Notes: a model not told the origin generated them from the sequence alone. A stretch of DNA of 64,000 nucleotides from Thermoplasmata archaeon (GCA_014859835.1 JACZKW010000047.1:2723-66722); one strand, 5' to 3'; counted from the stretch's first letter, positions 6,256 through 30,310 are shown. Made by a program: numbers and translations.

Positions 6256-6302
6256 GTCAAAAGGCTTAACTACAGAGACAATCTTCCCAACATTCCGTCT
6301 GC

Positions 6303-6406: not shown

Positions 6407-6461
6407 TCCACCCTCGTTGTCCAAGTGACAACTCTAATATGTCAGCGAGTCAATCGGCTTT

Positions 6462-8645: not shown

Positions 8646-8919
8646 CTGATACCACTGCTACAAAACGACCAATCAGTATAAAGCCTTTGATTGACAAGGC
8701 GATTCATGGTATCTGACAAGGGCTTCTGGCCACAGCCAATCGGTGGCCTTTCTTTTTCGACCTGTGACTTCTGGCTCACCTTGCGCGATTCGCCCTATCA
8801 TCGACCATTCCCCGCTCCATCGGCACCTGCCGATTTTTCGAGTGGAAACCAGTCGGATGAGTCGGCGATATGCTGCAATGGAAACGGAGGTGAGTTTTTG
8901 TCGTAGCCAGATAGTATTC

Positions 8920-8940
8920 TCAAAGATTTTATATACGCAG
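8920..8940. promoter_or_regulatory. palindromic TATA-like element (TTTTATATA) in the thiC/gyrB divergent intergenic region
   Basis: AT-rich ttttatatacgc centred ~8930 between divergently transcribed thiC and gyrB; could serve either direction. Confidence 0.3.
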
Positions 8941-8951
8941 GCTCCATTTAA

Positions 8952-10952
<2,001 letters not shown>

Positions 10953-14386: not shown

Positions 14387-14505
14387 CGATGCGACATGGC
14401 CGACGCGGCTCGTGTTGCGTGAAACCCTACGAGTACGCGCCATCCATCCCACTGGGATTTGGCGCGTATCACGAATGACATTGTCAACAAGGAGAGGGAT
14501 CGGCG

Positions 14506-15513: not shown

Positions 15514-15554
15514 CCAGCATCTGCTCAAACCCTTCTTTGTCATGAAAATGTGGC

Positions 15555-15572
15555 AAATAGCTTTTTATATAG
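15555..15572 (+). promoter_or_regulatory. archaeal TATA box/BRE-like element upstream of the adhesin gene
   Basis: aaatagcTTTTTATATAgcc ~45 bp upstream of ATG 15612. Confidence 0.45.
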
Positions 15573-15611
15573 CCGAACTGCTTACTTTGATTCGCAATAC
15601 CCAGCATCTGG

Positions 15612-18600
15612 GTGGGTGAACTTATGGAACACAGAGCTGGCCCTCTTCAGGCCAACAGATCTCTGAGCGCATTGATTGTCGCCACATTCGTGCTGTCGGC
15701 GTTCGCCGGGCTATTCGTGATGTCGAATCCTGCGCCTACCGCTGCACAGACACCAATCGGTGACCTGATTGTAACCGCCGGCACATACACAGTCGAGAAT
15801 GTGAACCAACCTGTAGATGGTGATGTTCTCGTCAGTGGTGGGGAGCTGATAATACGGAACGCTGCTTTGCTGGTGATCAGCAACGTGGGTGTTCAGCGAA
15901 CGGTGACGATTGAAACCGGCGGAACCATGATTCTTGAGCGTGGCACTCTCACCACCTATCTGAACCAGATCGATCCATGGCCGTTCCTGATTGTAGACAT
16001 CGATGGAGGGACTCTCATAGCCTCGGAGAGGTCGCTATTGAGTTTCCCCGGCACAATCACCGTACAGAACGGTGGCGAGCTCATACTATATGACAGCACC
16101 ATCGAGCCGCTACCCGCAGGTGATATATCCCTGTACATTTCCGGGTCCCCTACAGTCGTCATTGACGCCGCGGATGATGGGCCAGCGATCTCAGTCATTG
16201 ACGGTTCAATAATGATGTTCGACTCCGAGATCACGAGTCTTCCGGAATATCCTTCGCTAGGTCTTGTCGCCAGCAATCTCACGCTGAGTGGAGAATCTAC
16301 TCTGCTGGCAGTCAACAGCTACATCAGTGTTGACTTCGGACCTAACGTCAGCGCATCTGATTGGTCCACCCATAATATGCTGGTCTTGTCGGATTCTTCA
16401 AAAGCCCATCTTTACGGAACATATTTCGATGAGTATTCTGGTAGCTATTCCGCAAGATCATCTGCCATCCTTGCTGACGGCGAAAGCTACATTGCATTGC
16501 CTGCTTCCTCTGGACCAGAAGATACTACGACGGGACAGTCTTACACTGATCTTGTGGCCAGCAATGAAGGTTCAACATATCACGTCGCTCCTGGGGATGT
16601 AATGGCCATCGACACTTTTAGTGCAGGTCCTCCTGCGACAGTTGATGAAGCAACACTATACGTGAGATATCTCGTAGACGCGGGATATAACGGTGCGAGA
16701 TCATTTACATGGCGCCTTGAAGGAGGAACTGCTGCATCGACTGGAATCACTCCCTTGCCATCTGAGACTTCCTTCGTAGAGAAGAGCTTCGATTTGCGTG
16801 ATGCGGGAGTAACCACCACTGGCGACCTCGCTGATTTGGACATCAACTTCATACACGATGGATCGACAGGCGATGTCCAAGTGGACAGCATGTCCATTGT
16901 AATCTCTTTGGGGCCAGAAGCCTACATATATAGATGGATCAACCTGACTGTCGGCGATGAATACGGCGTGCCGATTCCTGACTGTGACATTTCATCGACA
17001 TTTACGGGGTCTTTGACGTTCTCTGATCAGCCATCATTCTACTTCGGGCTGGGTGAGGGGAGTTCATCTGTTCCACCACAAGTTGTACTTGACTACATGG
17101 ATGAGACTGCTGAATCATTTGGTGTCACAGGCCCACTTGGTGCCGCGACCATACCACTACTGACTGATTTGGTGTCTGGTGGCCAATCTCCCAACTCTCT
17201 GTTTGTCGGAAGTTACAGTATTACTGGAACCGTCATACAGGATGCAGTGGAGCATGCATCAAACGAAACCTTCTCATTCCCTGCATACCCTGCGATGTCG
17301 ATTACAGATCAGCAATTCGATATGACGGTCGATGTCCAAGGCATATCTGCCGAGAGTCCTGACCCATCCAAGTGGTTGGTTGTTCCGCCAAACCTAACGA
17401 TTGAAAACATGAGCTACTATCACGCGGGTGATGTCATAGTGGCGTCTGATGGGAATCTCACATTGAGGAATGCGATATTTGAGTTGGTCCAATCAACTGC
17501 GAATGAGAGAACCGTCTATGTCGATGGAACCGCCAACTTCGTGATCGAGGACTCTCAGGTGAACAGCGCACTCGCGATTGATATCATAGTGAAGGGTCAT
17601 GGGACGCTCGAAGTCAACAGATCAGTTCTGAACGGCGTGAACATAGTGGCGATGGACGACGCACTTGTGATTCTCAGAGATACTGACTTCGATGGTACGA
17701 TAACCACTTCATGGGACTCATCGGCCAGAATCGTGGTCGTCGATTCCGTACTTGCTCAGGCACCAGTACTATCTGGCAACGCATTAGGAGAGTTTACGAA
17801 TTCGAGTGTTCCATCAATCGTGGTAACGGAAGACGCAAGAGCATTGATATACAGATGGATTCACGTGACCGTTCTGGATGGTGGCGACAACCCCCTGCCA
17901 GGAGCGTCTGTCTCGGCATGGTTCTTTGTGAACAGTACATACTGGTCGAGTGCACCCAGCGACGAATCGGGAATAGCACAGATCAAATCCCTTGGGACAA
18001 TACTGACATCCGACGGCTCGACGTTCATCGGCAATTACAAGATCAACTCGACGTACATGAGCGACGGAGACCTGCATTTCTCTGATCAGACGATATCCAT
18101 AGGTGTGATGCCGTATACCGAGCCCCTGACTGAAAACGCAACATACGCCGTGTTGAGAATGTCCACCGTCGTACTTCCCGATCTTAGCGTGAGGCCCGGT
18201 TATATTTGGACCGAGCCAACGGATGTCGTGTACAACTCTACATGTACGATCTTCGCCCTAATCGAAAACACCGGAGATAAGGTCGCGGAAGATGTCATGG
18301 TTGAGTTCTTGATAGGGGAGGATATCGAGACGGCAACTCTTCTGAATTCGACCGTGATTTCAACGATAAATCCGGACAGTCAGGTGACTGCTGATGTAGG
18401 ATGGATACCCGACAGTATCGGGACATTCACGGTATGGGTCCGGGTCAACGGTGGGCTCGACGGAACACCGGATTTCAATGAGCTTTCATTCATTGACAAC
18501 CAGGAATGGGTCTACATCCGAGTATTGGACTATGCTGACCTCTCGTTAAATGCGATTGAATTCCTGGCCGGCGACCCGTCGGTCATCGTGTCAAGCGTAC

Positions 18601-20414
18601 CTGGTGGACAGACCGTGTATGTTCGCTCAGTGCTGTACAACGACGGTGAGGCTCCTGTCTTGAACCCTGTAGTATCATTGACTGTGAACTATAGCGACTC
18701 AGAGACCGAGTTTTTCAATCAGACACTGTATGGTGTTCTTTATGAGGGCTCTCAATTCGCGGTTGAGTTCGTGTATTCCGCACCATTTGTGATGAACAAC
18801 ACTGTTTTCACTTTCACCATGGACGCGAACCGCTATGGGGCAGTGACGGAGACGGACCTGACAAACAACGTAGTGACGGATACGCTCACCGTCCTTGATA
18901 TCCGCGAGGACTTCAAAGTCGGCGTAGATGACATCTCTGTGGACGACGGCTCGAATGCTCATGAATTCGGGAGACTGATCACGATCACGGCCAACATCTA
19001 CAACCTGGGTGGGACAGACCCCGGAAGTGTGAGCATCAGATTCAACCTCACATTCGGGTCTCTGGAGTATGAGATCGGCATAAGGGCGACAAACATACCT
19101 TGGGGTATGATGACGCCTGTCTTCATGCCGTATATGATAAACCAGACGATTGGTGGAACATATTCCATATCCGTATACGTCGACTATGATGACAACTATT
19201 CGAATGAGAAGAACGAGGAGAACAACGAAGCAGCGATTGATTTCGAAATCGTCGATCTCGTGTATCACATCTCCATGACTACGAACGCCGACACGGGCGA
19301 GTATAAGGCGGGCGACAACGCCTTCGTGACCTTGTATGTCTTCTATGGCGCGACTGCGCCGGATGTTGGTAGCGAAGAAGCGGTATCTGGACTGCCAGGC
19401 GTTTCCGTGAACCTCGTGAGCCCCGATAGCATAGTCCTCGTGCGCGCCGATCCGATTTCGACATCCGCTACAGGCCAAGCATCATTCACAGTGGTGCTCC
19501 TGACAAGTCTAGAGACTGGTCAGTACACGCTGGTCCCAGTGATTCTTGAAGACGAGCAGCCTAGCTTCTCGCTTACGATAAGCATAGATGGCGAAGTCTC
19601 TGGACGTGGCATCGCGTTGTGGGTCTGGCTCGTAATAATCGGCGTGATCGTCGGATCCGTCCTCGGTGTCACTGCTTATATCTATTTCAGAGGTCTCGGC
19701 AAACTGGTCGAGTGTGGAGAATGCGGCGCATTCATCCCGGCTGGGAACAAGAGATGCCCGAAGTGTGGAGTTGAGTTCGAAGTCGGCACGATGAAATGCT
19801 CTGAGTGCGGAGCATGGGTGCCTGCGGAATCGACCGAGTGCCCCAACTGCGGCGTGAAGTTCGTCGGCGAGGAGATTGGCGAGGAGGATTACCTCGAGAA
19901 GATGAGGCGCGAGTACGATGAGATGGTCTCGAAGTACCGTGAGTTGGCAAAGCCCGAACTCGGCAAGAAGTTTAGCGACAAGAAGTTCGAAGAGTGGTGG
20001 GCAACCCAGCCGACATATATCTCATTCGATGATTGGCTCGCAAAGGAAGAGGAGAAGCGGAAGGAGGGGCCGGTACCATGCCCTGTCTGTGGCACGATGA
20101 ACCCGAAGGAATCGACTGTATGTCACAAGTGTGGCACGGTCTTCGGAGTCGAGACGGAAGTGCCTCCCGGAAAGCAGCCTCCCACCCCACCGTCCTCAGG
20201 CGAGGCGTTGCCAGAATCGTCTGGAGTCGAGCCTGCCCTGTCAGGCGAGAAAGCTTCAGAACAACCGCGCCCTCCCCAGGCTGCAGCACCGAAGATGGTC
20301 ATCAGAAGGCCCATCGACCGAAAGGTGGTCCCGAAGAAGATCATCAAGACTCCTATAGCCAGGGATTCGAATAACGAAGGCAACGGATCCTACAACGACG
20401 AGGATCAGCAGTAG
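15612..20414 (+). CDS. giant cell-surface adhesin-like protein (N-terminal signal/anchor, beta-rich repeats incl. CARDB-like modules, C-terminal TM, cytoplasmic triple zinc-ribbon + Pro-rich tail)
   Basis: N-terminal hydrophobic LSALIVATFVLSAFAGLFV; CARDB-like VRPGYIWTEPTDVVYNSTCTIFALIENTGDKVAEDV; TM GIALWVWLVIIGVIVGSVLGVTAYIYF; then CGECGAF..CPKCG, CSECGAW..CPNCG, CPVCGT..CHKCG. Confidence 0.8.
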   Translation: MGELMEHRAGPLQANRSLSALIVATFVLSAFAGLFVMSNPAPTAAQTPIGDLIVTAGTYTVENVNQPVDGDVLVSGGELIIRNAALLVISNVGVQRTVTIETGGTMILERGTLTTYLNQIDPWPFLIVDIDGGTLIASERSLLSFPGTITVQNGGELILYDSTIEPLPAGDISLYISGSPTVVIDAADDGPAISVIDGSIMMFDSEITSLPEYPSLGLVASNLTLSGESTLLAVNSYISVDFGPNVSASDWSTHNMLVLSDSSKAHLYGTYFDEYSGSYSARSSAILADGESYIALPASSGPEDTTTGQSYTDLVASNEGSTYHVAPGDVMAIDTFSAGPPATVDEATLYVRYLVDAGYNGARSFTWRLEGGTAASTGITPLPSETSFVEKSFDLRDAGVTTTGDLADLDINFIHDGSTGDVQVDSMSIVISLGPEAYIYRWINLTVGDEYGVPIPDCDISSTFTGSLTFSDQPSFYFGLGEGSSSVPPQVVLDYMDETAESFGVTGPLGAATIPLLTDLVSGGQSPNSLFVGSYSITGTVIQDAVEHASNETFSFPAYPAMSITDQQFDMTVDVQGISAESPDPSKWLVVPPNLTIENMSYYHAGDVIVASDGNLTLRNAIFELVQSTANERTVYVDGTANFVIEDSQVNSALAIDIIVKGHGTLEVNRSVLNGVNIVAMDDALVILRDTDFDGTITTSWDSSARIVVVDSVLAQAPVLSGNALGEFTNSSVPSIVVTEDARALIYRWIHVTVLDGGDNPLPGASVSAWFFVNSTYWSSAPSDESGIAQIKSLGTILTSDGSTFIGNYKINSTYMSDGDLHFSDQTISIGVMPYTEPLTENATYAVLRMSTVVLPDLSVRPGYIWTEPTDVVYNSTCTIFALIENTGDKVAEDVMVEFLIGEDIETATLLNSTVISTINPDSQVTADVGWIPDSIGTFTVWVRVNGGLDGTPDFNELSFIDNQEWVYIRVLDYADLSLNAIEFLAGDPSVIVSSVPGGQTVYVRSVLYNDGEAPVLNPVVSLTVNYSDSETEFFNQTLYGVLYEGSQFAVEFVYSAPFVMNNTVFTFTMDANRYGAVTETDLTNNVVTDTLTVLDIREDFKVGVDDISVDDGSNAHEFGRLITITANIYNLGGTDPGSVSIRFNLTFGSLEYEIGIRATNIPWGMMTPVFMPYMINQTIGGTYSISVYVDYDDNYSNEKNEENNEAAIDFEIVDLVYHISMTTNADTGEYKAGDNAFVTLYVFYGATAPDVGSEEAVSGLPGVSVNLVSPDSIVLVRADPISTSATGQASFTVVLLTSLETGQYTLVPVILEDEQPSFSLTISIDGEVSGRGIALWVWLVIIGVIVGSVLGVTAYIYFRGLGKLVECGECGAFIPAGNKRCPKCGVEFEVGTMKCSECGAWVPAESTECPNCGVKFVGEEIGEEDYLEKMRREYDEMVSKYRELAKPELGKKFSDKKFEEWWATQPTYISFDDWLAKEEEKRKEGPVPCPVCGTMNPKESTVCHKCGTVFGVETEVPPGKQPPTPPSSGEALPESSGVEPALSGEKASEQPRPPQAAAPKMVIRRPIDRKVVPKKIIKTPIARDSNNEGNGSYNDEDQQ

Positions 20415-20549: not shown

Positions 20550-22304
20550 TCAGGTTCGCTGAGGAGGTCCGGTCTCTGCCAGTTTCGCCCGGACCTCTTT
20601 CATCACCTTGTCAGGATCCTTGTAATATGCAGATATGATGGTGGCAACCTTCCTGTGATTGTCGATGCTCATCTTCTTCATGTACTCGAGGATGTCGACA
20701 CGCCTCTTGATCTCCCTTTCCATCTCGCGAGGTGCCCAGTTTCTGGCCATTCTGACCTTCTCGTACACGTAGCTGTGACCGCTGTAGTTGAAAGTGTCAT
20801 CTGCTGGATTCCACGTGTAGACGGAGTTTGTGATCAGCTCATCGGTCTCGGGGTCGATGCCGACGATCTCCGTCAGTGACTTGACTCGTCTGGTCATCTT
20901 GGTCCCGACCTTGACCTGAGCCTGCAATAGCACGATATTGAGGGCGGTTATCAATGCCCTGGGCAGGTTGATGGGGTCGTTCTCCATCCTGTGAACCATC
21001 GCCTGGACATCCTCTGCATGGAAAGTGGAATAGCAGGTCTTGCCAGTTGCCATGGCCTGGAACACGACATACGCTTCCTTGCCTCTGACCTCACCGACCA
21101 TCAGATACTGAGGCCTCTGTCTCATGGCTGCCGTGAGCAAGTCGAACATGTCTATCTCACCGGAAGATCTTCCAGTGATCATGCTCTTCCCGCCGAAGCC
21201 TTCTCGGGTCAGACCCGGGACCCAGTTCTCATGTGGTAGGTTGAGCTCCCTGGTGTCCTCGATGGAGACGATCTTCATCTGCGGGGGGATGAAAAGGAGA
21301 ACGGCGTTCAAGGTCGTGGTCTTTCCACTCGCGGTACCTCCACACACGAGCATCGACTCTCCATGCTCGATGCCTATCCAGAGGTATGCCATCATCTCCG
21401 TGCTCATCGTCTTGAATTTGAGTAGGTCGAGCGGGGTGAAAGGATTCTCCTTGAACCGTCTGATTGTGAATGACGAACCCCTCTTCGTGACATGCTTCCC
21501 GAGGGTCGCCTGCAATCTGGAGCCGTCCGGGATCGTAGCGTCCAGAAGTGGGCTCGCAACCGAGATGTGCTTGCCGCACTTCTGGGCAAGCCATACAACG
21601 AAACCATCGAGTTCCACCTCCTTCTCGAACCTGAGATTGGACCTTATTGAGCCGTATTTCCTGTGATAGATGTACAGCGGGACGTCGACTCCATCGCACG
21701 AGCAGTCCTCTACATTGGGTTCGGCCATCATCACGTCGATGACGCCGTAGCCGAGGAAATCCCTGAGGAGATAGTACATCACCCTCTCCTTGGATACTGG
21801 ATGCAACGAGATGCCCAGCTGGTCCATGAGCTCCTCGATGATCCGTCTGAGGTACTTCTCCTTCTCGGAAGGTTCCTCCTCGGTCATCTTCTCGACAGAT
21901 GCGATGAGGGTCTCTTTCAGCAGAGCGAGCACAGCTGCCTCGTCCCCCAGCAGCTTAGGCTCGATCACCTCGTATGTGTACTCGTTGGCCTTGTTGTCGT
22001 ACCTTATCCTGACATATGAATAATTCTGTTTGACCGGGATCATCTCGACCTCGTCGATATTCGACTCGGTCAGCTTTGGTATCTCCGTGATCTGGCTGAT
22101 GTCGACCTTCACCTCGTTCTTGGTGATCGCGATCATCGCAGGTCTGGGCTTTATCTTCATAAGGAAACCGTAGTACGCTGCGAAAAAGCCTCCGCTCTTC
22201 GCCTTCTCCTCCTCTGGTGGGGGAGTCTCATCTGCTTCAGGCGCGTTTGGCTGCGGTTCTTCCGTTTCTATCTTGGCCTGCTCGGTTTCAGACATCTCAA
22301 TCAC
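20550..22304 (-). CDS. FlaI/TadA/VirB11-family secretion-pilus ATPase (paralogue B)
   Basis: LVCGGTASGKTTTLNAVLLFIPP Walker A, Asp/His boxes, FlaI-like N-domain; no archaellum accessory genes nearby. Confidence 0.85.
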   Translation of the reverse strand: MIEMSETEQAKIETEEPQPNAPEADETPPPEEEKAKSGGFFAAYYGFLMKIKPRPAMIAITKNEVKVDISQITEIPKLTESNIDEVEMIPVKQNYSYVRIRYDNKANEYTYEVIEPKLLGDEAAVLALLKETLIASVEKMTEEEPSEKEKYLRRIIEELMDQLGISLHPVSKERVMYYLLRDFLGYGVIDVMMAEPNVEDCSCDGVDVPLYIYHRKYGSIRSNLRFEKEVELDGFVVWLAQKCGKHISVASPLLDATIPDGSRLQATLGKHVTKRGSSFTIRRFKENPFTPLDLLKFKTMSTEMMAYLWIGIEHGESMLVCGGTASGKTTTLNAVLLFIPPQMKIVSIEDTRELNLPHENWVPGLTREGFGGKSMITGRSSGEIDMFDLLTAAMRQRPQYLMVGEVRGKEAYVVFQAMATGKTCYSTFHAEDVQAMVHRMENDPINLPRALITALNIVLLQAQVKVGTKMTRRVKSLTEIVGIDPETDELITNSVYTWNPADDTFNYSGHSYVYEKVRMARNWAPREMEREIKRRVDILEYMKKMSIDNHRKVATIISAYYKDPDKVMKEVRAKLAETGPPQRT

Positions 22305-23284
22305 GCAAACAGTATTCTGAGGGAAACAAATCCTGCGACCAACATGATGAAGCTGTGCCTCATCCCTATGGGTATGCTCCCCTTCTGGATGACACCAGCT
22401 AGCAGCCCATCCCCAACCGCATGCACCACTATCGCAAGTAGGAATATGAATGAGATATCGTCGATGAGGGCGACCTTGATGTTGACTCCCGGAATCTCCT
22501 GTAATCCCATATCCTGAGCCGCATCGTTCACCGTCGTTCCCGCCTCCTCCATCTTAGGGAGGAACTGCAGGTCGAGGATCAATATTGTCGCAATGAACAC
22601 GAAGAATGAAATGTAGACGACCATCACATAGGTCGACATGGTCACGTTCCTCTCCTCCTGTGTGAGGATGGATTCCTTGGCATCATGGGACACCATAGTG
22701 AGGACATCGGCGACGTTGCCACCCGCGTCGTTGGCCTTCCTGATTATCGATGTCATTCTTACGACCAGAGGTGTCTTGACCCTTTCCGAGAACAATCTGA
22801 TGGCCTCAGATGCGGGCACACCCCATTCTATCTGCGCAGCCATCTTCTTGATTTCCGGAGTCAATCGGCCATATCTGCCGGACGATGCGATGACGATCGA
22901 GTCCGCCAAAGTCATGCCGAACCTTCCGGCCTCCGCCACATCTCTGAGGAAATCGGGTAGTCTGGTCTCGATCTCCCTGATATGCTTCTCCTTCGCCGAT
23001 GTGTAGAATCCGTAGGGGGCAAGGAATGCCAATATCCCAAAGATGACGTAATCGATCGGTTCGAACGGGAGCGAAAGGCTGCCTATCCCATCTATGATCG
23101 CCAAGAACACGCATATGCCCACAGCGGCGAACGAACCTGCTAGGATGGTTCTAGTCTTATCGGACTTCTCAGTGGCAAGGATCTTCTTGATCGCCCTCTC
23201 CTGTTCTGCCTGACTGAGCTTCTTCGTTGCCATCCTACATCGCCCCTTCCTGTGACATGTTCCAAATGACAAATATGAATCCAA
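22301..23284 (-). CDS. FlaJ/TadC-like platform membrane protein (half-size, part B)
   Basis: 327 aa, polytopic, T2SSF-like cytoplasmic domain; overlaps neighbours by 4 and 50 bp. Confidence 0.65.
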   Translation of the reverse strand: MDSYLSFGTCHRKGRCRMATKKLSQAEQERAIKKILATEKSDKTRTILAGSFAAVGICVFLAIIDGIGSLSLPFEPIDYVIFGILAFLAPYGFYTSAKEKHIREIETRLPDFLRDVAEAGRFGMTLADSIVIASSGRYGRLTPEIKKMAAQIEWGVPASEAIRLFSERVKTPLVVRMTSIIRKANDAGGNVADVLTMVSHDAKESILTQEERNVTMSTYVMVVYISFFVFIATILILDLQFLPKMEEAGTTVNDAAQDMGLQEIPGVNIKVALIDDISFIFLLAIVVHAVGDGLLAGVIQKGSIPIGMRHSFIMLVAGFVSLRILFA

Positions 23285-24278
23285 ACTGCGAGATCGGGAT
23301 CATCCCCAGGACGATCAGGTACAGGAGCGTGACCATCATGTCGGAGTCACCTCCACCGACGATTGCCATGATCGCCATGATGAGAACAAGGAATAGGGGG
23401 AAAGCAACGACGACAGTGACGAAGGATTCGGCGAGCATGCCAAGTGTCTCCATCTGGGACTTCATGGCGAGCTTGTTCTCCTTCTGGTATTCATCCGCCT
23501 TGAGCAGGAAGTACGGCTTGAGTTGCCCACCTGATGTGGAAGTGGTGACGACACCCTGCAAGAACTCCTGGAACTTGGCCGAGGGTGACCTCTTCGAAGC
23601 CTTCTTGATGGCGGTCAGGATATCCGATCCCAGTAGTTCCGTGTCACGCGTGATCCACGAGGACTCCTCCGAGATCTCACCGTAGACCTTCTGCCTCGAG
23701 AGTTCCTTGAATATGACATCTATGTTGACATCCGCCGACGCCATGGCAGAGATGAAGCCCATCGCAGCCGCGATCCTCTTGTCGATATCCCTGCCCCTGG
23801 ACTTGGCCTTGGAGGCCGGTGATCCCATGAGCATCATGAACGCCATCATGGGTAACAGACCAATCGCTATGCCTGATATCATGATCCTAACCATTATCGA
23901 TACGCCGAGCACCCCGAAGAGGATGATGCCGACGACCACTGCTATGACCACTCCTATGGCGAATGCGATGATAGTGCTCATGAGTACATAGGCATAGTAT
24001 TCTTCGACCCGTATCCTCATATGGGCCTTGTTGAGTGATTCCTCAAGGGCCTGGTTGTTGGCGCTGGTCATCTTATCGCTCGCGAACTTGCCCATTATGC
24101 GCCAGGACAAATCCTGAAACTTGGTCAGGCTGACGTAGTCGGGGACGGCGCCCTTGGTCAATCGGACTCCATGAGGTCCGATGTCCTCCCCTCTCTGGGT
24201 CAGCTTCGTCTTGAGGTACTCTCCCTTCTTGGTCTCGACCCTCTCGAAGACATCGGAGACTTCAGGCAGAGTCGACAC
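23235..24278 (-). CDS. FlaJ/TadB-like platform membrane protein (half-size, part A)
   Basis: 347 aa, polytopic, T2SSF-like; 17-bp overlap with upstream ATPase. Confidence 0.65.
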   Translation of the reverse strand: MSTLPEVSDVFERVETKKGEYLKTKLTQRGEDIGPHGVRLTKGAVPDYVSLTKFQDLSWRIMGKFASDKMTSANNQALEESLNKAHMRIRVEEYYAYVLMSTIIAFAIGVVIAVVVGIILFGVLGVSIMVRIMISGIAIGLLPMMAFMMLMGSPASKAKSRGRDIDKRIAAAMGFISAMASADVNIDVIFKELSRQKVYGEISEESSWITRDTELLGSDILTAIKKASKRSPSAKFQEFLQGVVTTSTSGGQLKPYFLLKADEYQKENKLAMKSQMETLGMLAESFVTVVVAFPLFLVLIMAIMAIVGGGDSDMMVTLLYLIVLGMIPISQFGFIFVIWNMSQEGAM

Positions 24279-26022
24279 CTCCTGTCGGCATCTTCAAACC
24301 GCTCTGGGAGGCTGCCGGGTACATTTCCTTTCGAGCCATTTCCGCCACTCCCTTCGGGTCCTTGTAATATGATTTGATGATGTTCCAGATGTCCACATGG
24401 TCAGACATGTCCTTCGATACCATGTATTTCACGATATCCACACGGCGCTCGAATTCCTCCAGCAGTTCCTCGTGTGTCAGGTTCTTCATTTCCATGATCT
24501 TGTCAAACAGGAAACTGTGGCCCTTGAAGATGAACTTGTCCGTGGCCTGATCCCATTCGTAGACCGTGTTGCTGATGAGCTCGTTCGTTTCGGGTTCGAA
24601 ACCGACGATTTCGATGAGCTGCTTGATTCTCCTGACCATGTCCATTCCTACTCTTGCATGTGTCTGGATGATGACATTCCTGAGGGCAGTGAGCAGAATT
24701 CTGGGACAATTGATCGGTGGGTTCTCAAGCCTGTTGACCATGCCCTTGACAGAATCCGCGTGCATGGTCGAGAAGGTCGTGTGACCGGTCGCCATCGCTT
24801 GGAACATGGTGTAGGTCTCCTTTCCTCTCACCTCTCCGACGATGATATAGTTCGGCCTCTGTCTCAACGCGGCCCTGACGAGGTCGTACATATCTATCTC
24901 ACCCGCGGCCTTTCCGTCCGGCCCTCGCTCACCTGAGCCAGATCTTGTCGTGGCGGGAATCCAGTTCTCATGAGGTAGGTTGATCTCTCTTGTATCCTCC
25001 ATGGTGACGATTTTGGCACCAGGGGGTATGAATAGTGACATGGCGTTGAGCGTCGCCGTCTTTCCACTAGCCGTGCCTCCGGCTATGATGGCCGACTCTC
25101 CATGCTCCACACCGAGCCACAGATACGCGACTATCTCTGGTGATGCCGTGCCGTACTTGATCAGTTCGACCGGCGTGAACGGTTTCTCCTTGAATCGTCT
25201 GATTGTGAACGAGGCACCCCTCGTGGTCACTTCTCTCGCATAGGTCGCCTGGACTCTGTGCCCTTCCGGCGTAGTACCGTCTAGTATGGGGTTCGAGACG
25301 GAGAGCTGCTTCCCACATCTCTGGCCAAGCGATATGACGAACGAGTTGAGGTCATCCTCATCCTCGAACACGACATTGGTCTTGATGGATTCGAACTTGC
25401 TATGGAACAGGAACAGTGGGATGCCTACGCCATCGCAGGATACGTCTTCGACATGAGTGTCGCTAATCATTGCATCTATGGGACCATATCCGACGAAATC
25501 CCTCGTGATGAAGTACTTCACCTTGTCTTCCGAGATCGGTTCGAGTCTGATACCCCTCGACTTGATGTAGCTGTCCACGCTCCTCTCCAGGTAGGTCTTC
25601 TTGTTCATGTGGTCGAGCTTCGCCCACTCGTAATCGAGGATCATCTCGAAGGTGGCCTTGATCTTCTTCAACAACGCATCTTCGTCTTCGGTCAGCACCG
25701 GCTCGATCACGCTCATTATGTAATCGCTAGTGGCTGCGTTGTAAGTAACCCTCACATAGCTGAACGGATCAACCACTGGATAGAATGCCATCTCCTGGAT
25801 ATCAGGATCCGTTATGGGGGGGATCTCGGTGTACGGTGACCCCTTCCCGTCCTTCCACTGCTTCCTCCTAGCAGCTGCACCCTTCGCGGATTTGATTTTG
25901 ATGGGTTCGGATTTGAGCCTGCTCACAGCGTTGATGTATCCATGCCAGATGCGAGCGCCTATTGGCTGCTTAGGGACTTTAACGGGTATGTCATATTCAA
26001 TTTTCGCATCTGCCTCAGACAA
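24262..26022 (-). CDS. FlaI/TadA/VirB11-family secretion-pilus ATPase (paralogue A)
   Basis: IIAGGTASGKTATLNAMSLFIPP Walker A, GEVRGKE, His box; clearly paralogous to 20550..22304. Confidence 0.85.
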   Translation of the reverse strand: MSEADAKIEYDIPVKVPKQPIGARIWHGYINAVSRLKSEPIKIKSAKGAAARRKQWKDGKGSPYTEIPPITDPDIQEMAFYPVVDPFSYVRVTYNAATSDYIMSVIEPVLTEDEDALLKKIKATFEMILDYEWAKLDHMNKKTYLERSVDSYIKSRGIRLEPISEDKVKYFITRDFVGYGPIDAMISDTHVEDVSCDGVGIPLFLFHSKFESIKTNVVFEDEDDLNSFVISLGQRCGKQLSVSNPILDGTTPEGHRVQATYAREVTTRGASFTIRRFKEKPFTPVELIKYGTASPEIVAYLWLGVEHGESAIIAGGTASGKTATLNAMSLFIPPGAKIVTMEDTREINLPHENWIPATTRSGSGERGPDGKAAGEIDMYDLVRAALRQRPNYIIVGEVRGKETYTMFQAMATGHTTFSTMHADSVKGMVNRLENPPINCPRILLTALRNVIIQTHARVGMDMVRRIKQLIEIVGFEPETNELISNTVYEWDQATDKFIFKGHSFLFDKIMEMKNLTHEELLEEFERRVDIVKYMVSKDMSDHVDIWNIIKSYYKDPKGVAEMARKEMYPAASQSGLKMPTGGVDSA

Positions 26023-26032
26023 AAGCTCACCT

Positions 26033-27223
26033 CTAAGGGGCCACCTCGCCCAGTGTTACCAGGATCGTCGCGTGCGTGTGGTCCAAAACGTTCACATCCT
26101 TGATCGTGACTGTCAATGTGTAGTAATCGTTCTGGGTGCCTTCCGAATCATGTAGCGTGAGAGGTCCTATTGAGAAGTCAGTATCGTATGTCAAGCCCGC
26201 CATCGAGTTGTTGAGCGCCTTGTTGAAATAGGTCAGCCAAGCGTTTCCGTGCTTGCTCACTATCGTGAACGTGAGGTCAGCTCCCACATCGCTTTCGTAT
26301 ACATTGGTGTTGGCATAGAGGAGATCAACGTATATCCCCTTCGTGCCAGTCCCACCCACGGTCTTGTCCAGGCCTAGCATCGAGACCTGTGTAAGCTTGA
26401 CAACTCGGCTCGTGTCAACCCCTGCAACGATATTCGTGACCGAGAACTGAAGCCCCGCTATGATATATTCTCCATCTGACTGGTTGAGTATCAGGGCACC
26501 GCAATCATAGGTCAGGTGCTGCTCGACATAATACCTGTTAGGTGCATAGAAGTCGATGTATCCGCCAGCGTGTCCGTCATCGCTTGTGCTCAATGTCTGC
26601 TCGTCGCCTACGAATGTCGCATTGAACGATGGATACCCGGTGGTGGATTGAGAACCGAACTGTAATATTCCAGCTGTCGGTGCAGCGAATATCGGTATGC
26701 CCTGGGCATGTAAAGTTATCGGGACGAAAACGGGAGTAGGGGCCAGAAGGCTGTTCGAATAATCCGCGACCAGCCCGTCGACCTGGGACTTGAGGTAGAT
26801 CATCTGCTGGACAACTGTCGCCATATGCGCGCTCTCGTTATCGCTCATCCAGACAGGGACGAACTGGTTGGTGAACATGCCCATGAACGTAAGGAACACA
26901 AGCAGCGACATGATGGTGCCGATTGTAGAGGCAACCCCCTCATCATCGTTCCATCTCGGCGATCGCTTAATACGGCCAATAACGGAGTTTCCAGAATAGC
27001 TATTTCGAATTTCTGACAAGTCCATCCTACCACCGAAGGGGGGTTTCTGAAGCAACCTAATCAGCGTCTGAAGCATATTTAAAGTCTTCGTTTCTGGTAT
27101 CGTCTGGAATACACCTTTTTTTGCCACCCCAGATCGATCGGATTCGCCTGGTCGTATGGACCATCGATGTTGATCAATCTCGTCCGACCCCCTCATCGAT
27201 ACCGTCGATTTCAGTTCTTGCAC
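26033..27223 (-). CDS. signal-anchored extracellular beta-rich protein, first gene of the pilus-like operon (pilin-like/pilus-associated candidate)
   Basis: single N-proximal hydrophobic segment VASTIGTIMSLLVFLTFMGMF preceded by charged RIKRSPRWNDDEG, then Thr/Ser/Asn-rich beta-type sequence; GTG start at 27223 (in-frame ATG at 27196); 10-bp gap to ATPase A. Confidence 0.4.
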   Translation of the reverse strand: MQELKSTVSMRGSDEIDQHRWSIRPGESDRSGVAKKGVFQTIPETKTLNMLQTLIRLLQKPPFGGRMDLSEIRNSYSGNSVIGRIKRSPRWNDDEGVASTIGTIMSLLVFLTFMGMFTNQFVPVWMSDNESAHMATVVQQMIYLKSQVDGLVADYSNSLLAPTPVFVPITLHAQGIPIFAAPTAGILQFGSQSTTGYPSFNATFVGDEQTLSTSDDGHAGGYIDFYAPNRYYVEQHLTYDCGALILNQSDGEYIIAGLQFSVTNIVAGVDTSRVVKLTQVSMLGLDKTVGGTGTKGIYVDLLYANTNVYESDVGADLTFTIVSKHGNAWLTYFNKALNNSMAGLTYDTDFSIGPLTLHDSEGTQNDYYTLTVTIKDVNVLDHTHATILVTLGEVAP

Positions 27224-27289: not shown

Positions 27290-27365
27290 GCCGTGGTAAC
27301 TCAGTTGGGAGAGTGCAAGACTGAAGATCTTGAAGTCGCTGGTTCGAGTCCGGCCCACGGCACCA
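27290..27365 (+). tRNA. tRNA-Phe (GAA), CCA encoded
   Basis: GCCGTGG-TA-ACTC..GAGT-G-CAAGA-CTGAAGA-TCTTG-AAGTC-GCTGG-TTCGAGT-CCGGC-CCACGGC-A-CCA. Confidence 0.9.
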
Positions 27366-27475
27366 TTCCCTTGTCCAGGGTGGTCGAGGTGTTGCCCCTC
27401 GATCTGCAACCCTTTATTGGAATAGATTCATGTCCTTGGTACGTCCTATACGCGACAGGACGGAGGAGAACAAGA

Positions 27476-27913
27476 ATGCCGATCAAATCATTCGAACTAG
27501 TGTCGCTCGATGCGAAGAGATTCACGAAATTGGGGGAACGGGTTCCTCAGCTCAGGGTCGATCACAATACTTCAGTGACGAGCATATCGGCGATGTCCGA
27601 GAAGGATGCCATGGTGGAATTCACATTCACCGTCAGCTATGTCGGCGTCGGGATAATCAAGATCGAAGGTAAAGTCGTATGGGACGGGGAAGCCCAAACA
27701 ATCGCGTCCCAATGGGCCAACAAGAAGGAGCTCCCTCAGACTGTATTCAACCCTATCCTGAACGCGATCTTCGCGAACTGCATGCCCGCAACCGTCACCG
27801 TGGCGCGGGACATAGGCCTGCCACCGCCGTTGCCGCCTCCGCAAGTCGCGATGAAGCGGAACGCCAAGATGCCGGGCGGGAAGGACCATAAATCGTCGAT
27901 GGAAGTGGCCTGA
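27476..27913 (+). CDS. hypothetical protein (145 aa, Pro-rich C-terminus)
   Basis: ORF-track start 27293 overlaps tRNA-Phe; in-frame ATG at 27476 has GGAGG 10 nt upstream. Confidence 0.45.
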   Translation: MPIKSFELVSLDAKRFTKLGERVPQLRVDHNTSVTSISAMSEKDAMVEFTFTVSYVGVGIIKIEGKVVWDGEAQTIASQWANKKELPQTVFNPILNAIFANCMPATVTVARDIGLPPPLPPPQVAMKRNAKMPGGKDHKSSMEVA

Positions 27914-27928
27914 TAGGCCTACGTTCTC

Positions 27929-30310
27929 TCATCTTATGTGGTCAAGCGAGAACGATCCGATGTTCAGTCCGGATTTGGTGAAAGAGTATCTTATGAAGGC
28001 TCTTGACTGAACCTCGCAGATACCCTTCACCGATAGGAACATGTTCAGGTTCTCGAGTTTGAACTCGATCATGCCGTCCATGAGCGATCCGAGCATCTGG
28101 ATCTCCTGATCTCCATGGACGCCCTTCTCGATCGTGTACATCGAGACCGCCTTGTCTCTCTTCCTTCTGCCGGCGACTGGACTGAGGAATCTGAATGCTG
28201 TGTTCGGGTCCAGATACGCTATGAGTGTGGAGATCGATCTGAACGCCATCCTATAGTATTCGTGGTCTTTCTTGAACCCTTTGGCGGCCTTCTCCAGCGC
28301 CTTCTGGATCGATTCATAATCAGTTGGCGCCTCGACGTATTCAGTGTACGGGTCCTCGGTCTCGTCACCCATGCTCCGGGAATAAGTGTCCACGTATCTG
28401 ACGAGCCCCCTGCTCTCATATTCCTCGTATCCTGAGAGCACGAACATCATCTCGTTCCTGATCTCCTTAGGTGATTTCTCGGTGATGACCCATATCGCAG
28501 GGATGCCTTTCTTCAACCCCTCTGCGATGAATGAATTCATGAGTACTTCCTTGCCCGTGAAGGGCGGACCATAAATCAGCATGTTCGACCCGAAGGGCGC
28601 GCCGCCCAGAAGCAGATCATCGAGTCTGGTGGTCCCAGTCTTGACCTTCTCCTGCTTGAGTTCGATGAGCCTGTCCTGCTCCCTCTTCTCAATCTCATCT
28701 GTTATGAGCCCCTGCTCCCTCGCACGGAGTTCGTCCTCCTTCATCGAGAAGTACTTCTCCTTGTTCCTAATCTCCTCTTCCTTCTCGGTGATCTGCCCCT
28801 GCAACTCTTCGAGGCGTTGCTTCGTGGTTAATTCGTCAGTGTTCATGAGGCTGGCTTTCTGCTGGGAGGCCCTCTTCAGTTCCTCCTCCAGGAGCCTCTC
28901 CCTGAACATCAGGTCTTCCTCTCGGCGGATCATCTCCTGCTCTTTGTAGGCCAACGGTTCCTTGAGCTTCCTCGTCTCGTCGTCTCGTATCCTCAACTCT
29001 TCCTTCAGCTTCTCGATCTCTTGCTCTCTCAGAGCGAACGACCGCTCGAGGTTCTGGGCCTGTTCCAACCTCTTCATCAGCTCCGGGTCCAGCACGGAAC
29101 CCTTCATCTCTGATATCTTCGCTTTCTCTTCCAGATGCTTCATGTCGAATTCTGTCCGGGAGAGCTTCGCCTCCAATCCGTGTATCTGCTCGTTGAGCTC
29201 GCGTTCCTTGGCGGAGGACTCCTCCAGCTCCTTGATGCGTTCTTCACTGTCCGAAGGCCCTCTGCCATAGGACATTATGCCTTCCTGGAGCGTGTTCTCC
29301 TTGGCCTTGAGCTGTAACTCATAGGCATCGATCTGTGCCATCCTCTGCGATAGCTCGATCTCCTGGCGCTTGAGGGTCTGTGCATCCACTGGCATCTCGG
29401 CGATACCCTTCTCCGTCTTTTCCCTGAAATCCCTCAGTTGGCTCTCGAGCTCCATGACTTTCAGTTCGAGATCCTCCTTCCGGGCCATCTCGGACGCGAG
29501 CTTGTCCGCGAGGTTCTCCGCATCAGCTGGCGCCCCCTGTTGCTTCTTGATGAACTTGATGACTGCGATACTTCCGCGTTTGACGTTCTCCAGCTCCTCC
29601 TCCAGTTGTTTCCTGTGAACGCGCTCGGCCTCGACTTCGCTCTTCGTGTGGGCTAATTGTTCAAGGACGGCCTGAGGATTGAACCCATCCGTCTCGAACT
29701 GCTTCAGCGTCTGTCTCAGTGTTTCGCGGAGTTGTGTGATCTCCTCTCCGTGCTCGAGCATCTCCTCGGGCACGCTCTTCTTAGGTATGGAGGCGCTCTT
29801 GATCTTGGGCTCATCGAGCCATGACTCAAGCCCCTCCTCGGTGCCAGCGAGCCATTTGGCCAGTGAATCATCATGGGTGAGTCCCGGTTCGGTCGTGGCC
29901 ACCGCTTCCTTCTCCTCATGGTTCTCGCCAGAGATCCATGCGGACAGACCTTCGTCCTCCCCAGCCAGCCAATGGGCGAGTTCCTTGTTCTCAGGGTTCA
30001 CCTGCGATCGGGCACCCTTGAGTATCTTTGCGGCTAATTTGTCCCCAATGCCTTTGATCCCGGCCAGTTCGCCAAGGTCTGCATTCTGCAGGTCATTGAC
30101 ATTCCTATAGCCGGCTTTGAGCAATAAATGAGCCTTTGCCTCGCCGACTCCCGGGACCGACATAAGTCTCTCGACGTCCCCCTCGCCCGAAGGAGAATCC
30201 TCTACCAAGGGGGCAGCACAGTGCTCACAACTGCCCTCGGAAACGGAAGACTCCTGCCCGCAATTCGGACATAAGGCGTGTCGCTTTTCCGCGTCATCTT
30301 TTTTCGGCAT
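27929..30310 (-). CDS. zinc ribbon + helix-hairpin-helix + long coiled coil + C-terminal KaiC-like RecA-fold domain (degenerate Walker A)
   Basis: CPNCGQ...CEHCAAPL; HhH GVGEAKAHLLLKAGYRNVNDL...IKGIGDKLAAKI; ~400 aa E/K/R/L/Q heptad region; TRLDDLLLGGAPFGSNMLIYGPPFTGKEV (KaiC-like, Ser/Thr of P-loop replaced by Glu). Confidence 0.75.
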   Translation of the reverse strand: MPKKDDAEKRHALCPNCGQESSVSEGSCEHCAAPLVEDSPSGEGDVERLMSVPGVGEAKAHLLLKAGYRNVNDLQNADLGELAGIKGIGDKLAAKILKGARSQVNPENKELAHWLAGEDEGLSAWISGENHEEKEAVATTEPGLTHDDSLAKWLAGTEEGLESWLDEPKIKSASIPKKSVPEEMLEHGEEITQLRETLRQTLKQFETDGFNPQAVLEQLAHTKSEVEAERVHRKQLEEELENVKRGSIAVIKFIKKQQGAPADAENLADKLASEMARKEDLELKVMELESQLRDFREKTEKGIAEMPVDAQTLKRQEIELSQRMAQIDAYELQLKAKENTLQEGIMSYGRGPSDSEERIKELEESSAKERELNEQIHGLEAKLSRTEFDMKHLEEKAKISEMKGSVLDPELMKRLEQAQNLERSFALREQEIEKLKEELRIRDDETRKLKEPLAYKEQEMIRREEDLMFRERLLEEELKRASQQKASLMNTDELTTKQRLEELQGQITEKEEEIRNKEKYFSMKEDELRAREQGLITDEIEKREQDRLIELKQEKVKTGTTRLDDLLLGGAPFGSNMLIYGPPFTGKEVLMNSFIAEGLKKGIPAIWVITEKSPKEIRNEMMFVLSGYEEYESRGLVRYVDTYSRSMGDETEDPYTEYVEAPTDYESIQKALEKAAKGFKKDHEYYRMAFRSISTLIAYLDPNTAFRFLSPVAGRRKRDKAVSMYTIEKGVHGDQEIQMLGSLMDGMIEFKLENLNMFLSVKGICEVQSRAFIRYSFTKSGLNIGSFSLDHIR

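Follow-up and report, generated by a model that had tools for sequence, protein, structure and literature searches.

A five-gene operon of a Thermoplasmata archaeon that very probably encodes type IV pilus machinery with two ATPases and a split platform

The window analysed here, 64,000 nucleotides of a Thermoplasmata archaeon (GCA_014859835.1, JACZKW010000047.1:2723-66722), carries a compact operon of ca. 6.5 kb on its minus strand. The five open reading frames reported there in an earlier note, made from the sequence alone, are all present, and run in the order pilin-like gene 1, ATPase A, platform N-half, platform C-half, and ATPase B. The operon, with its signals and junctions, is composed as follows:

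27076..27083, minus strand: candidate archaeal TATA box TTTAAATA, read from the sequence, 51-58 nt upstream of ATG 27025
27034-27026, minus strand: ribosome-binding motif GGTGGTAGG, read from the sequence, ahead of ATG 27025
26033..27025, minus strand: gene 1, 330-aa pilin-like protein (start codon evidence, N-terminal motif, AF2 model, profile match)
Junction of gene 1 and ATPase A: 10-nt gap with an AGGTGA motif
24262..26022, minus strand: ATPase A, 586-aa FlaI/GspE-family secretion ATPase (Pfam T2SSE; NCBIfam FlaI model)
Junction of ATPase A and platform N-half: 17-nt overlap
23235..24278, minus strand: platform N-half, 347 aa, one T2SSF domain, counterpart of CdiPFa (Pfam; ArlJ/UpsF alignment)
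Junction of the two platform halves: 1-nt gap
22301..23233, minus strand: platform C-half, ca. 310 aa, one T2SSF domain, counterpart of CdiPFb (Pfam; the longest ORF starts at 23284)
Junction of platform C-half and ATPase B: GTGA overlap
20550..22304, minus strand: ATPase B, 584-aa FlaI/GspE-family secretion ATPase (Pfam T2SSE and PilB3_C; FlaI model)

Gene 1 had been described as encoding 396 aa; the gene stands but not its length, the likeliest start being ATG 27025 (330 aa) and not GTG 27223. We place the start there because of the TATA-like box, the ribosome-binding motif, and the length of the homologues, which others annotated at 320-338 aa. The TTTAAATA box at 27083-27076, situated within the 264-bp gap that separates the operon from tRNA-Phe, would then be a promoter element of gene 1. 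For the platform C-half, the most probable start is ATG 23233, a single nucleotide beyond the stop codon of the N-half. Gene overlaps of 4-50 bp had been claimed; the tight packing is real, while the 50-bp overlap is an artefact of choosing the longest ORF. All four junctions are equally tight in 62-78 related loci (mostly -17 to +15 nt), which is far beyond chance, and the proposal of a single transcription unit is upheld by the tight junctions here and in the relatives.

Pfam recognizes a T2SSE domain in both ca. 585-aa proteins and one T2SSF domain each in the 347-aa and 327-aa (longest ORF) membrane proteins; a crude hydropathy scan predicts at least three membrane helices in the platform N-half. 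On the ArlJ profile (555 positions) the N-half aligns with positions 5-246 and the C-half with 259-536; on the UpsF profile (484 positions) the corresponding stretches are 29-225 and 274-437; and the BasF model divides the two membrane proteins in the same manner. BLASTP detects no similarity between them. Since they match different halves of ArlJ and UpsF, they are the N- and C-halves of a platform and not two copies of one half, so that the tandem duplication that the earlier note had held against its own reading is not what the alignment to FlaJ reveals. Together, the domains and the half alignments bear out the description of a type-IV-pilus-like operon in which two paralogous FlaI-family ATPases surround a split FlaJ/TadC platform. 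The symmetric gene order and the single T2SSF domain per membrane protein might also suggest two half-systems lying side by side, one made of ATPase A and a homodimer of the N-half-like protein, the other of the C-half-like protein and ATPase B. We regard this as highly unlikely, given that the two align with opposite halves of full-length platforms and that both are present in all 68 loci with enough sequence, neither ever alone, always adjacent, and usually within a few nucleotides of each other. Moreover, the TadB/TadC platform of the Epd system of Methanococcus and of bacterial Tad systems likewise occupies two genes, and such a pair is read there as one platform that underwent gene fission (Denise et al. 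2019, PMC6668835).

ATPases A and B share 50% identity over 507 aa and thus are not the near-identical recent duplicates that would have spoken against the earlier description. The best PDB match of ATPase A is the Archaeoglobus fulgidus GspE (2OAP, 408 bits), to which ATPase B scores 434 bits; Sulfolobus acidocaldarius FlaI (4II7) follows with 311 bits for ATPase B and 282 bits for ATPase A. The catalytic motifs of ATPase A (Walker A, Asp box, Walker B, His box) are invariant in 77 orthologues, and those of ATPase B in ca. 59, except that 50 of 59 have Lys instead of the first His of the His box. The second His is retained by both clades, as are Walker A, the Asp box, and Walker B. From these intact motifs we propose that both ATPases are catalytically competent. 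In the alignment of A with B, 169 columns hold the same residue in both clades at a conservation of at least 90%, and 38 columns hold clade-specific fixed differences. The N-terminal tails differ as well, being basic in ATPase A (median net charge +9) and near-neutral in ATPase B (+1). Some long ATPase homologues with two matched stretches look like intein insertions, since the breaks recur at a few fixed sites, one of them directly behind the Walker A motif.

Two features of an archaeal type IV pilus are in place: a FlaI/VirB11-family ATPase with all its motifs, and a T2SSF platform, here spread over two adjacent genes. An archaellum, already discounted in the earlier note, is ruled out: the NCBIfam FlaI model gives 412 bits for ATPase A and 430 bits for ATPase B at an equivalog cut-off of 550; the ArlJ models score 37-77 bits against the platform proteins at cut-offs of 400-570; and accessory Arl genes were not found: the scanned window ORFs (Pfam and NCBIfam, the former up to position 52030) include nothing that resembles an archaellin, ArlF, or ArlG, and the Pfam and NCBIfam scans of the neighbours yielded no ArlC/D/E, ArlX, or ArlH. 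A TadA/CpaF-type ATPase was rejected too, with CpaF matching at 143-147 bits versus 408-434 bits for afGspE, and with TIGR03819 scoring 139 and 147 bits at a cut-off of 373. Neither do the ATPases belong to the PilT/PilU family (TIGR01420, pilT_fam: 44 and 51 bits, cut-off 319). A major pilin, PilA-like or CdiPB-like, was not found among the window ORFs examined (CdiPB was also sought by tblastn), nor was a prepilin peptidase (PibD/FlaK/EppA) among those scanned with Pfam up to position 52030; for that reason we infer the filament itself. Overall, it is very likely that the operon encodes membrane machinery for a type IV pilus of the Thermoplasmata type.

The protein encoded by gene 1 starts with a short basic leader, followed by an invariant hydrophobic helix, G↓VA(S/A)T(V/I)GTIM...VPVWM, and a beta-rich domain; this N-terminal motif is kept in every orthologue with a complete N-terminus. 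Its AF2 model (pLDDT 76, pTM 0.73) presents a long N-terminal helix and then a beta sandwich, the family profile matches the N-terminal helix of the GspG pseudopilin at E = 0.03, and the homologues give weak matches to Pfam DUF7289. The gene was found in all 66 loci with enough upstream sequence, and it is the only one within the window to encode a class-III-like N-terminus. The claim that the operon lacks a canonical class-III-signal pilin and that the junction in gene 1 is non-canonical holds only in part: the oddity is there and chiefly concerns residue -2 to the putative cleavage site, usually acidic among the orthologues, but a pilin-like signal is not absent, for the class-III-like N-terminus is conserved. 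By these traits gene 1 probably encodes a pilin of the minor or priming kind, or else an assembly subunit anchored in the membrane.

The operon is flanked by the following features, for which any functional linkage is putative:

27290-27365: tRNA-Phe, between the operon and the SecB-like gene
27476..27913, plus strand: SecB-like-fold cytoplasmic protein of 145 aa, a possible accessory (AF2 pLDDT 84)
27929..30310, minus strand: 793-aa protein, a possible regulator, in a separate transcription unit (Pfam, NCBIfam)
15612..20414, plus strand: 1600-aa surface protein, a possible partner, convergent with the operon (Pfam, hydropathy)

The SecB-like gene is divergent from the operon, belongs to a family of ca. 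145-aa proteins, and is syntenic in most loci that reach far enough upstream. The 793-aa protein combines a Zn ribbon, an HhH domain, a long charged helical region, and a C-terminal KaiC-like domain (Walker A: GPPFTGKE); its gene is syntenic in most loci, and so are housekeeping neighbours. The 1600-aa protein, the gene of which is also syntenic in most loci, carries an N-terminal signal anchor, CARDB domains, a membrane helix (1333-1351), and a cytoplasmic Zn-ribbon tail; S-layer-like proteins are known to occur near euryarchaeal type IV pilus loci (Makarova, Koonin and Albers 2016, PMC4858521). Within 7 kb of the operon there are two genes for KaiC-superfamily ATPases, which are distantly related to FlaH. 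The nearby KaiC-like proteins were rejected as ArlH, scoring 16 and 26 bits at a cut-off of 215.

Such surroundings invite the thought that the cassette does not make a pilus at all but exports or anchors the 1600-aa surface protein, or bindosome-like binding proteins, with the SecB-like protein as chaperone. The giant convergent surface protein and the SecB-like protein are conserved nearby, the window yielded no major pilin, and there are weak matches to the bindosome BasE and BasF models. These matches nevertheless score far lower than those to FlaI, ArlJ, and UpsF and stay far short of their own cut-offs, and the synteny control revealed unrelated housekeeping genes to be conserved as neighbours to an equal degree. 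Furthermore, the cassette also occurs in the absence of those neighbours, namely in a Cuniculiplasma-like locus and in the distant loci L064 and L072-L074, and Cuniculiplasma makes true pili (PMC12448462), all of which renders export without a pilus highly improbable.

The two-ATPase, split-platform layout is already known from published work. In Cuniculiplasma divulgatum, the cassette ATPase/N-half/C-half/ATPase was noted in 2016 (Golyshina et al. 2016, PMC5155288) and was investigated in a later study as the CdiP pilus machinery (Gaines et al. 2025, PMC12448462), its operon consisting of CdiPE1, CdiPFa, CdiPFb, and CdiPE2 (CSP5_0712-0715). This archaeon makes type IV pili with such machinery, its pilins being encoded ca. 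500 kb away, and no twitching was observed (PMC12448462); its genome holds no archaellum operon. For Aciduliprofundum boonei, a member of the Euryarchaeal Clade 2 pili, two ATPases within a single locus were reported (PMC4858521). Among the related Thermoplasmatota loci that we examined, Methanomassiliicoccales included, all 80 carry the cassette, and in full wherever the contig extends far enough; ATPase B is present in 58 of the 59 loci whose contig permits the check. The arrangement thus is atypical, as the earlier note had it, for archaea in general, but within the Thermoplasmata it is the rule.

A Cuniculiplasma-like contig has the identical four-gene order, which is seen in the Cuniculiplasma-like loci L081-L083 and in L084. 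The platform N-half aligns with CdiPFa,b residues 37-304 (36% identity, E = 3e-40) and the C-half with residues 337-604 (29% identity, E = 2e-35). By BLASTP, the first Cuniculiplasma-like ATPase matches A better (441 bits) than B (387 bits), and the second matches B better (421 bits) than A (353 bits), compared with only ca. 315 bits for the two against each other. Clade-specific profiles give 553 (A) versus 476 (B) for the first and 463 (A) versus 503 (B) for the second. The four core genes thereby correspond gene for gene to the Cuniculiplasma-like cassette, albeit that an NJ tree did not recover the ATPase groupings and placed the Cuniculiplasma-like ATPases outside clades A and B, on long branches elsewhere. 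Because of that failure, the age of the duplication is judged from similarity and from profile scores, the latter ca. 1.7 SD from background; on these grounds the A/B duplication is probably old, with both copies under strong constraint. To the published accounts the window adds a pilin-like first gene, strictly conserved within its lineage and missing from the Cuniculiplasma-like locus, and the probably old duplication of two strongly constrained ATPases.

As to the mechanism, the two half-size membrane proteins would pair into one platform equivalent to full-length FlaJ/TadC/PilC, its split being a gene fission as in the Epd and Tad systems. Beneath it, both ATPases would hydrolyse ATP and so drive pilin subunits from the membrane into the filament, with the gene 1 product most likely acting as minor or priming pilin or as an anchor at the platform. 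Genes for the major pilins and for the prepilin peptidase would lie elsewhere in the genome, as they do in Cuniculiplasma. That the machinery assembles a pilus, that the platform halves form a heterodimer, and that gene 1 plays this role is what we infer.

Two readings may account for the presence of two motors. ATPases A and B may each form a homohexamer of its own, with tasks that are opposite or otherwise distinct, be it extension and retraction or the assembly of different pilin sets, and with A perhaps docked on the N-half and B on the C-half; to this reading, which refines the explanation as pilus machinery and does not replace it, we give somewhat less than an even chance. It agrees with old paralogues that are both strongly constrained and differ at the 38 fixed columns, with the unlike charge of their tails, with a mirror-image gene order that joins each ATPase tightly to one platform half, with an ATPase pair that is never lost where the contig permits the check, and with the use of PilB and PilT in bacterial T4aP (discussed in PMC12448462). 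It is weakened by the fact that neither paralogue is PilT-like, by the lack of twitching in C. divulgatum, and by single archaeal and Tad ATPases that are capable of both jobs (PMC12448462, PMC6920026, PMC11300603). A and B could instead assemble into one hetero-hexamer, e.g., A3B3, under the heterodimeric platform, an asymmetric motor matching an asymmetric platform. The strict co-occurrence of A and B in one operon (ca. 58 species) would fit such a ring, the 169 shared columns would be compatible with preserved ring contacts, and the Lys that most B copies carry is a hint that the sites are not equivalent. We nonetheless deem it rather unlikely, as no fused A-B protein was found among the homologues and the solved relatives afGspE, FlaI, and CpaF all are homohexamers. 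We lean towards two specialised homohexamers rather than one mixed ring.

A bolder reading, which we consider less likely than not, is a functionally obligate ATPase pair fixed before the Thermoplasmatales split from the other Thermoplasmata, each ATPase serving its own platform half (A the N-half, B the C-half). The pair could comprise an extension ATPase and a retraction or priming ATPase, or a mixed ring matched to the asymmetric platform, and gene 1 could be the dedicated primer or anchor in those lineages that have it. If true, the obligate pair would make this a two-motor pilus of archaea with an origin separate from that of bacterial PilB/PilT.

Among known systems, the Euryarchaeal Clade 2 pili (Makarova, Koonin and Albers 2016, PMC4858521) likewise combine a FlaI/VirB11-family ATPase with a TadC-like platform and a large beta-rich minor pilin with a class III signal (arCOG02911), often with an S-layer-like protein and KaiC-like ATPases nearby; their loci differ in that they mostly hold one ATPase and one full-length platform gene. 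A. fulgidus GspE (2OAP/2OAQ) and S. acidocaldarius FlaI (4II7/4IHQ), the closest solved relatives of A and B, have the same motifs, but they are single-copy and both keep the first His-box His that usually is Lys in ATPase B. The Epd and Tad systems share the two adjacent platform genes with one T2SSF domain apiece; they differ in having one ATPase, and the window ATPases are far nearer to afGspE and FlaI than to CpaF/TadA. Bacterial T4aP also uses two paralogous hexameric ATPases, PilB and PilT, for one pilus machine, whereas here neither ATPase is of the PilT family and the duplication is a separate one within the archaeal FlaI/GspE-like group. The CdiP machinery of Cuniculiplasma differs in sequence (28-43% identity only), and the Cuniculiplasma-like locus lacks gene 1, the SecB-like protein, the KaiC-HhH protein, and the giant surface protein; it is alike in gene order, in the split point, in the position-wise best matches of all four proteins, and in having its pilins outside the operon.

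All five open reading frames of the operon are confirmed on the minus strand, and their domain content matches: each of the two proteins of about 585 amino acids (aa) carries a T2SSE secretion-ATPase domain, and the 347-aa and 327-aa membrane proteins carry one T2SSF platform domain apiece (Pfam). The gene order is a pilin-like gene (gene 1), ATPase A, the upstream and downstream membrane proteins, and ATPase B. The earlier note, which read these five frames as an operon, was essentially correct; two of its gene models were artefacts, because the longest open reading frame had been taken. For its 396-aa first gene the most likely start is ATG 27025, which shortens the product to 330 aa; a candidate archaeal TATA box (TTTAAATA) lies 51-58 nt upstream of this ATG and a ribosome-binding motif (GGTGGTAGG) immediately ahead of it, and gene 1 homologues are 320-338 aa long as called by other pipelines. 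Likewise, its 50-bp overlap of the two membrane protein genes most likely gives way to a spacing of one base, the ATG at 23233 of the downstream gene following the stop codon of the upstream gene. At the remaining junctions, gene 1 and ATPase A lie 10 nt apart, with an AGGTGA motif in between, ATPase A and the upstream membrane protein overlap by 17 nt, and the downstream membrane protein and ATPase B share a GTGA overlap.

ATPase A has 343 relatives in a scan with one genome per species, and the best 80 of these were examined as loci. These best 80 of 343 belong without exception to the Thermoplasmatota: the top relative comes from a Thermoplasmatota MAG (98% identity), and Methanomassiliicoccales and Proteinoplasmatales are reached at 63-70% identity. 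The cassette of two ATPases around two membrane proteins is present in 80/80 of these loci, and the full five-gene order appears in every locus whose contig is long enough. Where the contig allows a check, gene 1 is found in 66/66 loci, both membrane proteins in 68/68, and ATPase B in 58 of 59, the exception being locus L076. Spacing at the four junctions is mostly -17 to +15 nt (62-78 loci). Evidently, the five genes form a strictly conserved operon; the two-ATPase, split-platform layout is the conserved norm across the Thermoplasmata, not a Cuniculiplasma oddity, and most lineages have an additional, conserved pilin-like first gene. L076 is the only locus in which ATPase B appears broken into overlapping pieces (about 8417-9882), which may reflect a pseudogene or a fault in the assembly. 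The complete cassette of five genes occurs in many MAGs of Methanomassiliicoccales and Methanomassiliicoccus (loci L037-L070); for the three genomes of Methanomassiliicoccus type available at that time, secretion ATPases had been reported to be entirely absent (Makarova et al. 2016, PMC4858521).

The two ATPases of the window share 50% identity across 507 residues, and their relatives fall into separate orthologue clades, A and B, with the following identities:

A orthologues versus ATPase A of the window: 61-98%
B orthologues versus ATPase B of the window: 65-99%
Any A versus any B: 46-54%

The 50% identity and the separate clades rule out a recent tandem duplication, and bear out the earlier reading of two paralogues that are not near-identical recent duplicates. 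For both proteins the top NCBIfam match is the FlaI equivalog model, at 430 bits for B and 412 for A, short of its cut-off of 550. Their nearest solved relative is Archaeoglobus fulgidus GspE (434 bits for B, 408 for A), followed by Sulfolobus acidocaldarius FlaI (311 and 282 bits); at about 145 bits CpaF comes next, and PilB and PilT are distant (about 30-40 bits). In the paralogue alignment (77 A and 60 B sequences) the Walker A (GGTASGKT), Asp box (EDTRE) and Walker B (VGEVRGKE) motifs are invariant in both clades, as is the second His-box histidine; 169 columns have the identical residue at no less than 90% conservation in both clades, and 38 columns hold clade-specific fixed differences. 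As the motifs are invariant and these shared columns conserved, both ATPases are evidently functional enzymes with stable divergence, both under strong constraint; that one is a degenerate, inactive or regulatory copy is ruled out by the invariant motifs. In ATPase B (20550-22304, minus strand) the first His-box histidine is replaced by lysine at residue 422, where ATPase A, A. fulgidus GspE and FlaI have TGH. Lysine stands here in 50/59 B copies; nine Methanomassiliicoccaceae keep the histidine, so that the exchange is not universal and does not define the paralogues.

The N-terminal tail is strongly basic in ATPase A (median charge +9) and near neutral in ATPase B. These distinct tails, together with the mirror-image gene order, would fit two specialised homohexamers, perhaps each docked on its own half of the platform, which we regard as a tentative possibility; that A and B join in one mixed ring seems to us rather unlikely. 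Among distant ATPase homologues, drawn from a search of 1.84 billion representatives in a set that carries no taxonomy, many are 1000-1500 aa long with two matched stretches (representatives P0231, P0249, P0274, P0285, P0293-P0295, P0309, P0312, and others). The breaks lie just past Walker A (query about 323-332) or near 344 and 401-434. Such breaks hint at inteins inserted at recurrent sites, and speak against these proteins being fused double ATPases.

Between the upstream and downstream membrane proteins no pairwise similarity is detectable. Their alignments to platform models cover different stretches:

Model positions covered by the two membrane proteins (NCBIfam)
ArlJ (555 positions): upstream protein 5-246; downstream protein 259-536
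UpsF (484 positions): upstream protein 29-225; downstream protein 274-437
BasF (656 positions): upstream protein 138-337; downstream protein 393-623

To judge from these alignments, the two proteins represent the N-half and the C-half of a single platform. The split platform that the earlier note had proposed is thereby upheld, and the option that both proteins correspond to the same half is ruled out. Relatives of CdiPFa (the Cuniculiplasma divulgatum counterpart of the N-half) of 535-538 aa, considered as unsplit platforms, are actually longer N-halves with a separate C-half next to them.

Gene 1 is read as a pilin-like subunit. All orthologues with a complete N-terminus have a short basic leader followed by the near-invariant G↓VA(S/A)T(V/I)GTIM..LVFL....VPVWM..N (arrow, putative cleavage site), which is similar to the N-terminus that processing gives the pilin CdiPB of Cuniculiplasma (KA↓VSPPIATILLIAITV) and is the sole class-III-like N-terminus detected in the 64-kb window. 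Position -2 is usually Glu or Gln, and Arg or Lys in several orthologues; the putative site thus looks class-III-like but atypical. Hence the earlier statement that the operon lacks a canonical class-III pilin and that the junction in gene 1 is non-canonical holds for the -2 residue, but a conserved class-III-like N-terminus is present. Gene 1 of the window matches no family in Pfam or NCBIfam, even at E = 10, while several homologues show a weak match to Pfam DUF7289. In its AlphaFold2 model (pLDDT 76, pTM 0.73) a beta sandwich follows a long N-terminal helix; a Foldseek search of the PDB retrieved nothing, and the family profile gave one near-significant PDB match, to the pseudopilin GspG in its N-terminal helix (E = 0.03). 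Because the helix is near-invariant, a machinery-associated role (minor or priming pilin, or anchor) is suggested over that of a fast-evolving major pilin. By description, gene 1 can be likened to the large beta-rich minor pilin of euryarchaeal type IV pili (Makarova et al. 2016, PMC4858521).

The surroundings of the operon contain the following features:

27290-27365, plus strand: tRNA-Phe (GAA), between the operon and the 145-aa and 793-aa genes
27929-30310, minus strand: 793-aa protein with N-terminal Zn ribbon, HhH domain, long charged helical region and C-terminal KaiC-like domain
13673-20414, plus strand: three-gene run convergent on the operon (237-aa, 335-aa and 1600-aa proteins)
6301-6401, plus strand: further tRNA of 101 nt (Rfam; missed by ARAGORN)
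50196-50292, minus strand: further tRNA of 97 nt (Rfam; missed by ARAGORN)

A 206-aa frame at 27293-27913 is discarded: its 5' part overlaps tRNA-Phe, its first 61 codons are non-coding, and the real gene encodes 145 aa. The 793-aa protein includes a region of about 450 aa that abounds in E, K, L and R and has a coiled-coil-like look, and its Walker A motif (GPPFTGKE) has Glu in the usual place of Ser/Thr; its gene is syntenic with the operon, yet a separate transcription unit. In the convergent run, the 237-aa protein is a single-domain KaiC-like ATPase (Walker A GPPGSMKT), the 335-aa protein has two Zn ribbons and an N-terminal region that looks charged and helical, and the 1600-aa surface protein has CARDB domains, a membrane helix (1333-1351) and a Zn-ribbon tail on the cytoplasmic side. 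The latter two are syntenic in many related loci, as are most of the neighbours named here in loci that extend far enough. The control genes, FtsJ and an AIR-synthase-related gene, are equally syntenic, and because of such housekeeping neighbours synteny is weak evidence that the KaiC-HhH (793-aa), SecB-like (145-aa) and giant surface (1600-aa) proteins belong to the system. Distant loci and the Cuniculiplasma-like locus retain the cassette alone. A functional link of the 145-aa, 793-aa, 1600-aa and other neighbours to the operon is possible. Farther away, the 101-nt and 97-nt tRNAs probably contain introns. The former overlaps the 5' end of a 794-aa frame (4027-6411, minus strand), placing the real start of that frame further downstream; in this large protein DUF835 occurs together with an ATPase domain of the bacterial DnaA type (Pfam Bac_DnaA, E = 2e-50), an unusual pairing in an archaeon, and the gene for it adjoins that of a 569-aa Zn-ribbon protein (2302-4011).

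We propose that the two half-proteins would pair into one heterodimeric platform, with ATPases A and B both acting as active motors and the gene 1 product as a platform-associated pilin-like subunit. The major pilins would come from elsewhere in the genome; neither a prepilin peptidase nor a major pilin was found among the window's frames scanned (Pfam scan up to 52030). For experiments on the need for two motors, the 38 fixed differences, the His-to-Lys exchange of most B copies and the N-terminal tail charges offer a comparative set.

The system of the window belongs to an already published kind, not to a new one. In C. divulgatum two TadC-like genes lie between two ATPases, CSP5_0712 and CSP5_0715, an arrangement likened to that of Aciduliprofundum (Golyshina et al. 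2016, PMC5155288), which has two distinct ATPases within one locus (Makarova et al. 2016, PMC4858521). Gaines et al. (2025, PMC12448462) named this machinery CdiPE1, CdiPFa, CdiPFb and CdiPE2, matched CdiPFa and CdiPFb to the N- and C-halves of AapF, and solved the pilus, whose pilins are encoded about 500 kb away; no twitching was observed, and the machinery was termed unique, its second ATPase unique and enigmatic. The split platforms of Epd and Tad systems have been ascribed to gene fission (Denise et al. 2019, PMC6668835). Against CdiPFa,b, the published sequence joining both Cuniculiplasma halves, which we rebuilt from the supplementary alignment of Gaines et al. (2025), the N-half of the window aligns to residues 37-304 (36% identity, E = 3e-40) and the C-half to residues 337-604 (29%, E = 2e-35).

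A CdiPFa query recovered Cuniculiplasma-like contigs (88% identity to CdiPFa) encoding an ATPase (525 aa), two T2SSF proteins (324 and 284 aa) and a second ATPase (529 aa). The first ATPase is nearer to A (441 bits versus 387 for B), the second nearer to B (421 bits versus 353 for A), and the two are just 33-36% identical to each other. Since this matching follows gene position and clade-specific profiles agree with it, the ATPase duplication probably predates the split of the Thermoplasmatales from the window lineage; in a neighbour-joining tree, clades A and B of the window lineage are sisters and the Cuniculiplasma-like ATPases lie elsewhere on long branches, a placement that speaks neither for nor against orthology and keeps this dating provisional. 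Homologues of gene 1 and of the remaining neighbours in the window are absent from the Cuniculiplasma-like locus; the same cassette occurs in a second Thermoplasmatales genome, where a Pilin_N gene lies 2 kb upstream of it. The layout called unique in Cuniculiplasma is thus standard in the Thermoplasmata, including Methanomassiliicoccales of anoxic habitats such as bioreactors and wetland soils, and our analysis indicates a conserved pilin-like subunit not encoded at the locus of the model organism.
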